The position numbers and the translations under genes were made by a program. A DNA stretch of 29,045 bases from a virus (taxonomy: Duplodnaviria; Heunggongvirae; Uroviricota; Caudoviricetes): IMG/VR virus record IMGVR_UViG_2579778652_000007, positions 1-29,045 of that record. One strand, 5' to 3'. Under the pieces are notes generated by a model that saw only the letters and a program-made list of their open reading frames with translations, made no database searches and was not told the DNA's origin. Below, in pieces: positions 14,556-29,045 of this stretch; the stretch's first letter is position 1, and every line of letters starts with the position of its first letter.

Positions 14556-15062
14556 TTGAGTATTTTCAATAAACACGCACACCAGGAACGTCCGTATATC
14601 GTCATAGTTGATATTGATGGAACAATATCAGAGGCAACTGAAGACAGACTGCATTTGCTTCCGCCACCAGGTAAAGGTGCATTAACAAAGGACTGGAACG
14701 AGTTTAATCTCGCCTGTGACACCGATACTCCCATCACTCCAGTTATTGATATGGTGCGCCAGTTATTTAACGTTTACACGGTCTGGTTTGTAACCGGGCG
14801 CTGTGAGATCGCAAGGGATAAAACACGAGCCTGGCTGCGGAAGTACGTAACAAACGGGGCTGAGCCTTTGCTATCTATGCGTCCTGCCACCGATGACAGA
14901 AATGACGGCCCAGCAAAGATTGATCTCCTTAAGAAAATTGGTCTAAGTAAAATCGCGTTCGCGCTGGAAGATAAGATTGAAGTGGCGCGTGTTTTCAGGA
15001 GGCACGGCGTGCTTACGTTAATGGTCAGGGAGTATGAAAACGCGCTTCTCCATCAACAATAA
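14556..15062 (+). CDS. HAD-superfamily phosphatase (DxDxT; P1 Pap-like by family and position)
   Basis: TTG start with GAGGAGG 5 nt upstream; N-terminal IVIVDIDGTISE (DxDGT motif). Confidence 0.7.
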   Translation: MSIFNKHAHQERPYIVIVDIDGTISEATEDRLHLLPPPGKGALTKDWNEFNLACDTDTPITPVIDMVRQLFNVYTVWFVTGRCEIARDKTRAWLRKYVTNGAEPLLSMRPATDDRNDGPAKIDLLKKIGLSKIAFALEDKIEVARVFRRHGVLTLMVREYENALLHQQ

Positions 15063-15078
15063 TTGCTCTAATAAATAT
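15062..15078 (+). promoter_or_regulatory. C1-operator-like 17-mer ATTGCTCTAATAAATAT (16/17)
   Basis: Overlaps last base of the HAD phosphatase stop; precedes the accessory cassette. Confidence 0.6.
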
Positions 15079-26780: not shown

Positions 26781-28264
26781 TGGCCAGAAGTTGCGTAACG
26801 GATCCACGTTGGCGCGAGCTGGTGGCGCTATATCGTTATGACTGGATTGCTGCCGCTGATGTTTTGTTCGGCAAAACACCTACCTGGCAGCAGGATCTGA
26901 TTATTGAGTCTGTGCAGGAACAGGGTAGCAAGACATCTGTTTCGTCTGGTCACGGTACCGGGAAATCAGACATGACTTCTATCATGATCATGTTGTTCAT
27001 AATCATGTATCCCGGTGCCCGCGCCATTATCGTTGCGAACAAAATTCAGCAGGTAATGACCGGTATATTCAAGTACATCAAGATAAACTGGGCTACTGCC
27101 ACCAGCCGTTTTCCATGGCTTGCTGATTATTTTGTTCTGACAGAAACCGCTTTCTATGAGGTTACTGGTAAAGGTGTATGGACTGTAGTACCGAAGGGCT
27201 TTCGTCTGGGAAGTGAAGAAGCTCTCGCCGGTGAACACGCAGATCATCTTCTGTATATTATCGATGAAGCCTCCGGTGTCAGTGATAGAGCTTTCGGTAT
27301 CATCACCGGTGCTCTTACCGGACAGGATAACCGCATCTTATTACTGTCACAGCCTACACGCCCAAGCGGCTATTTCTACGATACTCACCATAAACTGGCC
27401 AAGCGTCCTGGTAACCCTGATGGCGTTTATACGGCGATCACGCTTAACAGTGAGGAATCACCGCTGGTAACGCCAGCATTTATCAAAATGAAGCTGGCGG
27501 AGTACGGCGGGCGCGATAACCCTATGTACATGATTAAGGTACGCGGCCTATTCCCTAAATCACAGGATGGCTTCCTTCTTGGACGTGATGAGGTTGAACG
27601 TGCAACGCGGCGGAAAGTCAAGATTGCCAAAGGATGGGGCTGGCTTGCATGTGTGGACGTTGCTGGTGGTACGGGAAGGGATAAGTCCGTTATCAATATC
27701 ATGATGGTGTCCGGCCAGCGAAACAAACGCCGTGTAATCAACTATCGAATGCTGGAATACACAGACGTTACAGAAACGCAGCTTGCCGCCAAAATTTTCG
27801 CAGAATGTAATCCTGAGCGATTCCCAAATATCACCATAGCGATAGACGGCGATGGCCTGGGTAAAGCAACAGCGGATCTGATGTACGAGTATTATGGTAT
27901 TACCGTACAGCGTATACGCTGGGGTAAAAAGATGCATAGCCGTGAAGATAAGAGCCTGTACTTTGATAAACGTGCTTATGCCAACGTTCAAGCCTCAGAG
28001 GCCGTAAAATCTGGTCGTATGAGACTGGATAAGGGTAATGAAACTATTGAGGAAGCGTCGAAAATCCCTGTAGGGATTAACTCCGCAGGTCAATGGAAGG
28101 TGATGAGTAAGGAGGATATGAAGAAAAAACTCAACCTGCACTCACCAGACCATTGGGATACATATTGTTTCGCTATGCTGGCGGATTATGTTCCCCAGGA
28201 TGAAGTGCTTAGCGTCGAAGACGAAGCGCAGGTTGATGAAGCTCTGGCATGGCTTAATGAGTAA
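26780..28264 (+). CDS. pacB: Terminase large subunit (PacB-like)
   Basis: 494 aa; Walker [10 protein letters not shown], Walker [11 protein letters not shown]; ATG overlaps pacA stop (TAATG). Confidence 0.85.
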
Positions 28265-28267
28265 AAA

Positions 28268-28284
28268 CTTGCTCTAATAAATTG
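28268..28284 (+). promoter_or_regulatory. C1-operator-like 17-mer CTTGCTCTAATAAATTG (15/17)
   Basis: Begins 4 nt after the pacB stop. Confidence 0.55.
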
Positions 28285-28415
28285 TGTTTTTTGACTGCCG
28301 ATGTTACATTGAACCTGACCTCTTGCGCCTTGAGGCATTTTCGGTTTATGCTTATCAGGCACCTCAGTAAAACGGGTGCCGGGATTGGAACCCCGGATAA
28401 TGTCAAAGGCGACAC

Positions 28416-28438
28416 AGACGCCAAAAGCGTCTTTTTTT
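28416..28438 (+). terminator. Rho-independent terminator
   Basis: AGACGC-caaaa-GCGTCT followed by TTTTTT. Confidence 0.75.
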
Positions 28439-28623
28439 GTGTCATGCCATCGCACGGCCATACGTAGCGTTTAGCTCAGAGATCAATGGTAGTGCTGGCT
28501 GGGCTGCCGAAAGGCAGGCCGGTTCCCTTTGACGCCGGTAGTTCCAACCCAGTCAGTGCTACCGCCATTGAGATTGGAACCTCACGCGGTAGCTCCTTAA
28601 CTTAGTCAAAGGAGGCTGCCATT

Positions 28624-28845
28624 ATGGCTACTATCCCTACCCCAACTCATCCTGAATTTATCTGGCGCTTTTACTCCTGCCAGAAACGTCACTATCACTT
28701 CGTTATTGCACCGACAGAAGATGAGGCTCGCTCTCAGCTTCCTGATGCACCCTGTATTTTCTCCGCCCGTTTTTCTACTGATTCGCGCAATTCTCTCAGT
28801 TACTGGTGCCTCCCTGTTAACGCTTCTGCTCAGGAGGGACTATGA
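28624..28845 (+). CDS. Small hypothetical protein (73 aa; possibly Coi-like by position)
   Basis: Strong RBS AAAGGAGG 8 nt upstream; stop overlaps next ATG (ATGA). Confidence 0.55.
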   Translation: MATIPTPTHPEFIWRFYSCQKRHYHFVIAPTEDEARSQLPDAPCIFSARFSTDSRNSLSYWCLPVNASAQEGL

Positions 28846-29045
28846 GAACGTCATTAGTCACCCGTGAAGAGATGATCGAGGCAATTGAACAGCACACTGC
28901 CTGTATCAGTACCAGGGATATACCAGGCGTTATAGCCAACTACTTCATGATCACCAAACAACTTTACCGGAGAAAGGACAAGAACGCTGTTCACCGCATT
29001 CTGTTGTCTGATATCCGCGAATACCTGCTCGAACAGGGTCATCTG
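28842..29045 (+). CDS. Hypothetical protein, 5' partial (runs off window end; possibly immunity-region gene)
   Basis: ATG with GGAGGG RBS, open through the window end (68 codons); absent from ORF track because no stop in window. Confidence 0.5.
   Translation, partial: MRTSLVTREEMIEAIEQHTACISTRDIPGVIANYFMITKQLYRRKDKNAVHRILLSDIREYLLEQGHL

Follow-up and report, generated by a model that had tools for sequence, protein, structure and literature searches.

A C4-type antisense RNA gene downstream of pacB, with complementary sites flanking it upstream of icd and ant homologues

In the window (the whole 29,045-nt stretch of DNA that was analysed), the pacB gene ends at 28264, and no well-supported gene follows until 28624. 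Public records leave the stretch between them blank or name it 'ash family protein'. Two questions arise for this locus: (i) does the stretch encode an RNA or a protein and (ii) what would its product act on. The original prediction, made for 28440-28620, was of a structured regulatory RNA or leader that controls downstream, possibly immunity-region, genes. This expectation is borne out by a match to Rfam family RF01695 located directly upstream of icd and ant homologues: what follows pacB is a genuine structured RNA gene and belongs to a known class, the C4 antisense RNAs. We consider it very likely that this gene and its targets constitute an immI-type secondary immunity module, like the c4-icd-ant module of P1 and P7, and that it operates by the mechanism proposed below. 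Family membership, the fold with its covariation, the complementarities and their coordinated change, and the identities of the downstream genes were established in this analysis. The features of the locus are as follows.

28268-28284 (+): site resembling a C1-repressor operator, CTTGCTCTAATAAATTG, immediately 3′ of the pacB stop; aligns with annotated P1 Oc4, AATGCTCTAATAAATTT
28323-28352 (+): candidate promoter; -35 TTGCGC (28323-28), 18-nt spacer, -10 TATGCT (28347-52)
28359-28437 (+): IsrK-type leader RNA that carries a1 and b1; its parts are two hairpins, single-stranded sequence and an intrinsic terminator
28385-28391 (+): a1, TTGGAAC, in the loop of the hairpin CCGGG-AUUGGAAC-CCCGG; complementary to a′
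28402-28409 (+): b1, GTCAAAGG, complementary to b′
28416-28438 (+): intrinsic terminator, AGACGC-CAAAA-GCGTCT then T7, found by a terminator scan; the 3′ hairpin of the isrK model
28482-28569 (+): C4 antisense RNA gene (RF01695); predicted mature RNA 28488-28566
28526-28533 (+): b′, CCUUUGAC, recognition segment 2, in the loop of the second C4 hairpin
28541-28547 (+): a′, GUUCCAA, recognition segment 1, unpaired, at the junction that connects the second hairpin to the closing helix
28574-28580 (+): a2, TTGGAAC, mRNA target within a small hairpin loop whose stem pairs 28569-72 with 28581-84
28605-28612 (+): b2, GTCAAAGG, mRNA target overlapping the icd Shine-Dalgarno (SD) sequence AAGGAGG (28609-15)
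28624-28845 (+): icd homologue, cell-division inhibitor of 73 aa, 80% identical to P1 Icd
28842-29045 (+): ant, 5′ portion of the antirepressor gene, with a start codon that overlaps the stop of icd (ATGA); continues beyond the window

The C4 RNA gene and its fold

An Rfam scan of the whole window at curated thresholds returned three matches: RF01695, RF01394 and one tRNA (1427-1499). The RF01695 match covers 28482-28569 (+) and runs end to end (model positions 1-87 of 87), with a score of 77.1 bits against a threshold of 45 (E = 1e-13); RF01695 is also the top match of a sensitive Rfam scan. The structure consists of a 17-bp closing helix (28487-28503 with 28548-28564) and two hairpins enclosed by it. 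The first inner hairpin (CUGCC at 28504-08, GAAA at 28509-12 and GGCAG at 28513-17) is the GAAA-tetraloop hairpin that had been noticed in the sequence, now placed at 28504-17, and the second pairs 28518-22 with 28535-39 around a 12-nt loop. The minimum free energy (MFE) fold of the 88-nt core is the Rfam structure, at -46.5 kcal/mol (z = -5.0), and the entire 181-nt stretch (28440-28620) folds with z = -3.95; in both cases 0 of 200 shuffles were equally stable. Column alignment with the annotated P1 C4 (48343-48419) would place the ends of the mature RNA at 28488 and 28566, giving a predicted length of 79 nt.

The covariation analysis is based on a search of IMG/VR with the Icd protein, which gave 80 loci. 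A covariance model constructed from 11 representatives then identified a C4, one per source, in 70 of 72 sources (the window, P1, RCS47, D6, phiP27, TL-2011c, a Klebsiella plasmid, a Pantoea plasmid and the IMG/VR loci), and these 70 homologues, 19 of them distinct, make up the alignment. In this alignment, which was fitted to the model and is to that extent biased in favor of the structure, 93.8% of the cells of the whole C4 structure are paired, and both partners have changed in 14 of the pairs (70 sequences, 19 distinct). The closing helix is 100% paired in the 19 distinct sequences, with both-sided changes at 9 of its 17 pairs. Neither the observed pairing nor the covariation score was equaled in any of 500 shuffles. 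When the partners were slid by 1-3 columns as a control, pairing dropped to 30-55%, and this result, together with the independent MFE fold, argues that the covariation is not an alignment artefact. Pairing of the segments is thus conserved with covariation, and the lack of conservation that was looked for in homologous regions was not found.

A different hairpin had been proposed for the 3′ half of this region, with CGGTAG (28536-41) and CTACCG (28559-64) paired across 17 nt. The letters are present, but the fold is not conserved: pairing reaches 63% across the 19 distinct homologues, and none of the changes is compensatory. We rejected this hairpin. CTACCG pairs instead with UGGUAG at 28487-92, as part of the closing helix that is paired in every distinct sequence. 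With CTACCG in the closing helix, GTTCCAA (28541-47) becomes an unpaired junction of a three-helix RNA rather than a hairpin loop. The exact complementarity of GTTCCAA to TTGGAAC (28574-80), from which a pseudoknot with the hairpin loop had been suggested, stands as described, but the contact is the classical antisense contact between a′ and a2.

The end of the helix also deserves attention. In the window it is followed by GCCA, and the CC directly 3′ of the closing helix is invariant across the homologues, two features that fit what would be expected of an RNase P substrate. The element can be described as a textbook example of a C4-type antisense RNA, preceded by an IsrK-type leader, and is of a kind that is already known and recognized by existing Rfam models; both C4 and c4-a1b1 figure in the motif catalogue of Weinberg et al. 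2010 (PMC2864571).

Flanking elements, target sites and the recognition code

The operator-like site that follows pacB has a 13-nt core, TGCTCTAATAAAT, which is identical to that of P1 Oc4 and occurs in the window only here and at 15064, and C1 may bind at 28268-28284. The hexamers of the candidate promoter align with those of the annotated P1 promoter P1c4/P51b (TTGACC / TATAGT). A sigma-70 consensus scan of 28150-29045 called no promoter, so the assignment is made solely by alignment to P1. Transcription is predicted to start at ~28359, and the isrK match begins 7 nt after the -10 hexamer.

This match, to RF01394 (isrK), covers 28359-28437 (+) and all model positions (1-77 of 77) with 61.9 bits against a threshold of 50. 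The leader hairpins are kept with different sequences in four of the homologous loci (L033, L088, L089 and L090). The c4-a1b1 model RF03163, which scores 51-58 bits at P1-type loci, remains below threshold in the window (23.1 bits versus 46.7, E = 0.0013, at 28346-28399). The window leader takes the same role as the P1 c4-a1b1 leader but is of the IsrK type, and details of the P1 mechanism may consequently not transfer. The terminator noted at the outset of the region was correctly recognized: it is intrinsic, is formed by a hairpin at 28416-32 and a T-run, and marks the end of the IsrK-type leader. Since C4 lies downstream of it, C4 must come from transcripts that read through. Such read-through is likely here by analogy with Gifsy-1 IsrK (PMC4825925), and with a strong terminator between the presumed promoter and C4, the supply of C4 would depend on it.

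Downstream of C4, the SD sequence AAGGAGG (28609-15) is located 8 nt before the ATG at 28624, in agreement with the strong ribosome-binding site that had been read from the sequence. The protein that starts here matches NCBIfam NF033153 (phage_ICD_like, 49.8 bits) and phrog_1426. The antirepressor was identified from the full-length pTB502 Ant, which shows 56% identity to P1 Ant1 and a match to phrog_63, 'anti-repressor Ant'. Matches for these genes came from NCBIfam and PHROGs; a Pfam search matched neither Icd nor the N-terminal part of Ant. The ATGA overlap suggests that icd and ant are translationally coupled and, by analogy with P1, translation of icd would be the step that C4 blocks. On the opposite strand, the ORFs over the region have no Pfam match; one of them matches phrog_16848, a PHROG of unknown function.

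The two recognition segments of C4 each have one complementary site upstream and one downstream. Complementarity is exact between a′ and both a1 and a2 (7 nt) and between b′ and both b1 and b2 (8 nt); in summary form b′ is written CCTTTGAC and contacts b2, GTCAAAGG. Each of the four complementarities occurs in 0.3-4.5% of shuffled flanks, and all four occur jointly in 0 of 20,000. The small hairpin that presents a2 covaries as well, with all 4 stem pairs changed on both sides across relatives. When RNAduplex was applied to the whole C4 and its targets, the entire RNA was opened.

Support for a function of these segments in recognition also comes from their variation. In every locus a1, a′ and a2 change together, as do b1, b′ and b2, and more than 12 combinations are present among the relatives. 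The window code is TTGGAAC for a and GTCAAAGG for b, that of RCS47 is TTGAGAC and GTCAAAGG, that of D6 is TTGAGAC and GCAAAAGG, and that of the homologous locus L033 is TTGGAAC and GCAAAAGG. Thus, all four combinations of (TTGGAAC or TTGAGAC) with (GTCAAAGG or GCAAAAGG) are found in backbones that are 94-100% identical to the window. A lineage of 77% identity, represented by locus L007, has TTGGCCT and GTCTAAGG, with pairings that include G-U wobbles; because of these wobbles its triples were missed by an exact-word search for a and b, and they were resolved by alignment and a wobble-aware search. P1-type loci have a codes of TTGACAG or TTAGCAG and five b codes: GTTAGTG, ACTTACG, ACGAATG, GTACATG and GATTGTG. 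Coordinated changes of this type are the pattern that would be expected of an antisense recognition code under selection for heteroimmunity. The heteroimmunity of P1 and P7, reportedly explained in this way by Citron & Schuster in 1990, is a precedent for such a code.

A proposed mechanism and the alternatives to it

In the mechanism that we propose, transcription would start just after pacB, at a promoter adjoining the C1-operator-like site, and would first yield an IsrK-type leader of ~79 nt that ends at the intrinsic terminator. Transcripts that read through would hold a C4 precursor, which RNase P would cut between U28487 and G28488, by analogy with P1. The helix end and GCCA could mimic a tRNA acceptor end, and trimming would leave a stable RNA of ~79 nt. 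Its a′ (GUUCCAA) and b′ (CCUUUGAC) segments would then pair with a2 and b2 on the mRNA of the same operon and cover the icd SD sequence. With icd untranslated, the coupled ant (ATGA overlap) would not be made, C1 would stay active and the prophage would remain silent, and repression would extend to a superinfecting phage whose a/b code is the same. For P1, Biere, Citron & Schuster are said to have found in 1992 that C4 pairs with a2 and b2 and blocks translation of icd and of the coupled ant, with premature termination. Finally, a1 and b1 on the short leader would bind the same C4 segments, and the leader probably acts as a decoy that relieves repression, as for Gifsy-1 IsrK.

The processing steps, repression in trans, the coupling to termination and the role as a decoy are thus drawn by analogy from P1/P7 and Gifsy-1. 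The C4 of P1/P7 is an RNase P substrate whose 5′ end is made by RNase P, according to Hartmann et al. 1995 as cited in PMC2190699, and a passage in PMC12710915 states that RNase P substrates depend on an RCCA 3′ motif. Full repression of ant requires C4 (PMC8198154). The decoy role of the short leader, which we infer for a1 and b1 from the findings on Gifsy-1 IsrK (PMC4825925), may be regarded as the least certain step.

One further pairing could add a layer of control to this mechanism. The segment at 28586-28593 (+), GCGGTAGC, lies just 3′ of the a2 hairpin and is complementary to GCTACCGC (28558-65), which belongs to the closing helix as part of its 3′ strand. Among nine IsrK-type sequences, 96% of this pairing is retained and 4 of 8 pairs have changed on both sides; the sample is small, the GCGGTAGC segment necessarily resembles the 5′ strand of the helix, and we build no conclusion on it. 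By eye, P1-type loci keep 8 of the 9 pairs of the alternative helix. In the MFE structure of 28440-28620, an SD-sequestering hairpin (28588-98 with 28609-20) includes the GCGGTAGC segment. Alternative pairing and SD masking suggest a switch in the unprocessed transcript, which is possibly a new detail. A more ambitious reading would take the pacB-c1 module as a second, orthogonal antirepressor switch, in which a leader that titrates C4 and a cis-acting SD-masking helix form layers outside the P1 immI paradigm; we regard this as unlikely. If it were true, (i) release of a leader that titrates C4 through a1 and b1 would provide P1-like plasmid prophages with a route of induction that responds to host signals, as in Gifsy-1, (ii) translation of icd and ant would depend in cis on the folding or excision of C4 and (iii) the 2 x 2 reshuffling of a and b in near-identical backbones would be a combinatorial immunity code.

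Could the structure act entirely in cis, as an attenuator or switch in the 5′ UTR of icd, with all pairings within one transcript and no free RNA? All of the pairing partners are indeed on one transcript, the alternative pairing of 28558-65 with 28586-93 is conserved and uses a segment that also sequesters the SD, and alternative structures in cis have been described for the read-through RNA of Gifsy-1 (PMC4825925). However, the P1 homologue is a mapped, trans-acting RNA of 77 nt (P1 annotation; PMC8198154), a processed species of ~80 nt is seen in Gifsy-1 (PMC4825925) and the tRNA-like helix end with its conserved CC(A) argues for excision. Diversification of a and b in backbones of 94-100% identity is, moreover, the product expected of selection for trans immunity. 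A purely cis-acting element is very improbable on these grounds, but action in cis and in trans is not mutually exclusive.

We also consider it highly improbable that the functional product is a small protein, encoded by a 39-aa ORF (28486-28605) as the counterpart of Gifsy-1 orf45. The stretch had been described as free of a convincing ORF, and this is correct insofar as the ORF is not conserved but not insofar as its translation, from an ATG, passes the Pfam threshold for Phage_ASH (PF10554, 32.2 bits versus 26). PGAP annotates a CDS, 'ash family protein', in related plasmids such as pTetA_020022, and in Gifsy-1 a tagged orf45 protein was detected and translation of orf45 is needed for antirepressor translation (PMC4825925). 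The Pfam match spans only profile positions 49-86 of 107, however, and an NCBIfam search with the 39-aa ORF gave no match. The ATG is invariant across homologues, but it is located at the base of the closing helix and at the predicted RNase P site, which accounts for its conservation, and by eye no good SD sequence precedes it. From this same ATG the reading frame extends for 14 aa in P1 and in the homologous locus L075, for 28, 31 or 46 aa elsewhere and for more than 65 codons in others, and the stop of the P1 counterpart is inside the variable b′ loop. Substitutions over the ORF preserve base pairs and not amino acids. Gifsy-1 orf45 itself has a conserved nucleotide sequence and a variable amino-acid sequence, yet translation of the orf45 region there leaves room for a coding contribution here (PMC4825925). 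We concluded that the RNA is the conserved functional unit and that translation of the 39-aa ORF is possible but unsupported.

The remaining idea, of a tRNA-like element or decayed tRNA gene, came from the tRNA-D-loop-like motif TAGCTCAG (28472-79) followed by GGTAG and has a negligible probability: TAGCTCAG does resemble a D-arm and the closing helix with GCCA an acceptor end, but ARAGORN and the Rfam tRNA model (RF00005) find no tRNA there and only one, at about 1427-1502, in the window, the 21-nt segment that holds TAGCTCAG is deleted in L007-type homologues, TAGCTCAG is absent in P1 and the motif is dispensable, and the acceptor-like end would be accounted for by RNase P processing of C4, so that a tRNA gene is refuted by ARAGORN, the Rfam model and the L007 deletion.

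The module among related prophages and known systems

The C4 antisense RNA module, as we favor reading the locus, appears by analogy with related genomes to have been inserted between pacB and c1 of a P1-like plasmid prophage; in P1 the c1 region presumably follows pacB directly. Insertion at this position has been reported (PMC6906374). A near-identical plasmid, pTB502, aligns to the window with about 96-99.5% identity per aligned segment, with gaps, and with 100% identity over 28340-28640 (301 nt). The window is close to pTB502 but not identical, and what is said of the rest of its source genome is said by analogy. RCS47, D6 and pTB502 carry the module alongside a canonical immI, and the presence of a second module in related prophages has already been noted in the literature; canonical P1-type c4-icd loci are also present elsewhere in each of RCS47, JL22, D6 and 673R5. 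The code of the canonical copy in pTB502 (a′ CUGCUAA, b′ CGUAAGU) is unrelated to that of the window.

For annotation, these results mean that the stretch can be labeled as a C4 antisense RNA gene with a1/b1 and a2/b2 sites. They also mean that some related P1-like and D6-like plasmid prophages have a pair of antirepressor modules, each gated by a C4 RNA, whose recognition codes are unrelated. Resistance genes are present on many of these elements, and the existence of at least four a/b code combinations in the window-type module bears on which plasmids exclude or tolerate one another. This extends a mechanism known since 1990 and does not reveal a new one.

The closest parallel is the C4 system of P1 and P7 (immI, Citron & Schuster 1990; RF01695). 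The annotated P1 order is Oc4, P2c4 and P1c4, a1, b1, C4 (77 nt, 48343-48419), a2, b2, icd (73 aa) and ant1, with b2 over the icd ribosome-binding site and ant1 overlapping the icd stop, and the window module is collinear with it from the operator through ant. Both have the three-helix fold, in which a′ occupies the junction and b′ the second hairpin loop, and both have a1 and b1 upstream, a2 and b2 just downstream with b2 over the icd SD sequence, a 73-aa Icd whose gene overlaps the following ant gene at ATGA, a C1-operator-like site upstream and CC after the closing helix. In contrast, P1 immI is located between sim and kilA and the window module between pacB and c1, and the recognition sequences are unrelated (GUUCCAA and CCUUUGAC in the window, CUGUCAA and UCACUAAC in P1). 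The first hairpin has a GAAA tetraloop in the window and UUCG in P1, and the mature RNA is predicted to be 79 nt in the window as compared with 77 nt in P1. The leaders differ as well: that of the window belongs to the IsrK type and has a strong intrinsic terminator, whereas that of P1 matches c4-a1b1 and the terminator scan finds none in it. P1 immI was not retrieved by blastn with the window stretch because overall nucleotide identity is too low.

For the leader, the corresponding system is IsrK/STnc1160/orf45-anrP of Gifsy-1 (Hershko-Shalev et al. 2016, PMC4825925; RF01394). There, some isrK transcripts read through the terminator into an RNA that is translationally inactive, and STnc1160, a stable species of ~80 nt, is processed from it (PMC4825925). 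The short IsrK, an Hfq-binding RNA, activates translation of the antirepressor in trans through the upstream ORF on its own read-through mRNA, a finding made for Gifsy-1 only (PMC4825925). Shared with the window are a terminated leader of the 77-nt class that is complementary to downstream RNA, a processed RNA of ~80 nt from read-through (predicted in our case) and control of an antirepressor gene through translation of an upstream ORF (likewise predicted). Gifsy-1 orf45, which starts from a C4-like helix base, reaches and overlaps anrP and no icd is described; the 39-aa ORF of the window ends at 28605, and ant is preceded by a separate icd that has an SD sequence of its own. The authors of the Gifsy-1 study compare their system with P4 CI and not with P1 C4. 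The P4 CI RNA (seqA - cI/seqB - seqC) is likewise a small RNA, processed from the leader of its own operon, that pairs with two complementary sites, one upstream and one downstream (per PMC4825925), but it acts by premature termination of replication-gene transcription and not by masking the ribosome-binding site of icd-ant.

The second c4-icd regions of RCS47, pTZ20_1P, D6 and pYU39_89 represent the same module, with 88-96% nucleotide identity to that of the window. In RCS47 it occupies the same position between pacB and c1, whereas in D6 it is located elsewhere, between ref and pmgF. The specificity code of the window differs from those of the second c4-icd regions in both RCS47 and D6.

Alternative pairing and coding annotation at C4

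In the C4 closing helix, the 3′ strand (28558–28565) can pair with a downstream segment at 28586–28593, and this pairing is conserved: across nine sequences it is 96% paired, with four of its eight pairs changed on both sides. In the MFE structure, the partner of the downstream segment is the icd SD. The alternative pairing may constitute a cis switch.

Protein resources hold translations of the conserved C4 RNA (28486–28605 in the window and 747–866 in locus L092). The 39-aa ORF at these window positions is matched by Pfam Phage_ASH, is labelled ‘ash family protein’ by PGAP in related plasmids and is matched, at internal profile positions, by phrog_6928, 995 and 3960, for which PHROG gives ‘transcriptional repressor/regulator’. 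The members of these Phage_ASH and PHROG families probably include translations of an RNA gene. A second ORF lies on the opposite strand:

28189–28461, minus strand, 91-aa ORF overlapping the pacB 3′ end and the IsrK-type leader

Its PHROG match is phrog_16848 (function unknown, 119.7 bits), and it has a comparable annotated counterpart, orf84, in D6. We regard this ORF as probably another call over conserved non-coding sequence.

The annotated phiP27 regulator CDS (1451–2110 of its locus) spans the whole C4 RNA at 1606–1693; its start is probably mis-assigned, and the true start would come after the b2/SD site. The TL-2011c Rha CDS starts ~55 nt 3′ of C4, and this start looks correctly placed.

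Apparent mosaicism at C4–icd and mosaic structure of ant

Icd is 97–100% identical to that of the window in the IMG/VR loci L007–L031, and the two lineages are nearly identical from the SD onward. The leader and C4 upstream of icd in these loci are only ~77% identical to those of the window, and the a/b code (the C4 recognition segments and their target copies) differs. A mosaic boundary seems to lie near the icd start. Two, and even three, C4–icd modules with differing recognition codes occur a few kb apart on single viral contigs:

L013/L078/L084, one 42-kb IMG/VR contig
L018/L074; L072/L079; L054/L080; L063/L081, further multi-module contigs

The pTB502 ant gene occupies positions 5062–6171 of its locus; of ant, the window holds codons 1–68, at 28842–29045. 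The N-terminal ~95 and C-terminal ~140 residues of its product are highly similar to those of P1 Ant1, and the middle is an unrelated segment, in place of that of Ant1, that matches other antirepressor PHROGs. Compared with P1 Ant1, the pTB502 protein is a mosaic.

Other features of the window

15061–15077, second C1-operator-like site, ATTGCTCTAATAAATAT, just 3′ of an ORF ending at 15062
1427–1502, tRNA gene, anticodon CAT, Met by ARAGORN

The 13-nt operator core occurs twice in the window, at the second site and at 28270, and nowhere else in it. Candidate identities for the CAT-anticodon tRNA are initiator Met, elongator Met and Ile (lysidine), as in the tRNA cluster that P1-like phages carry.
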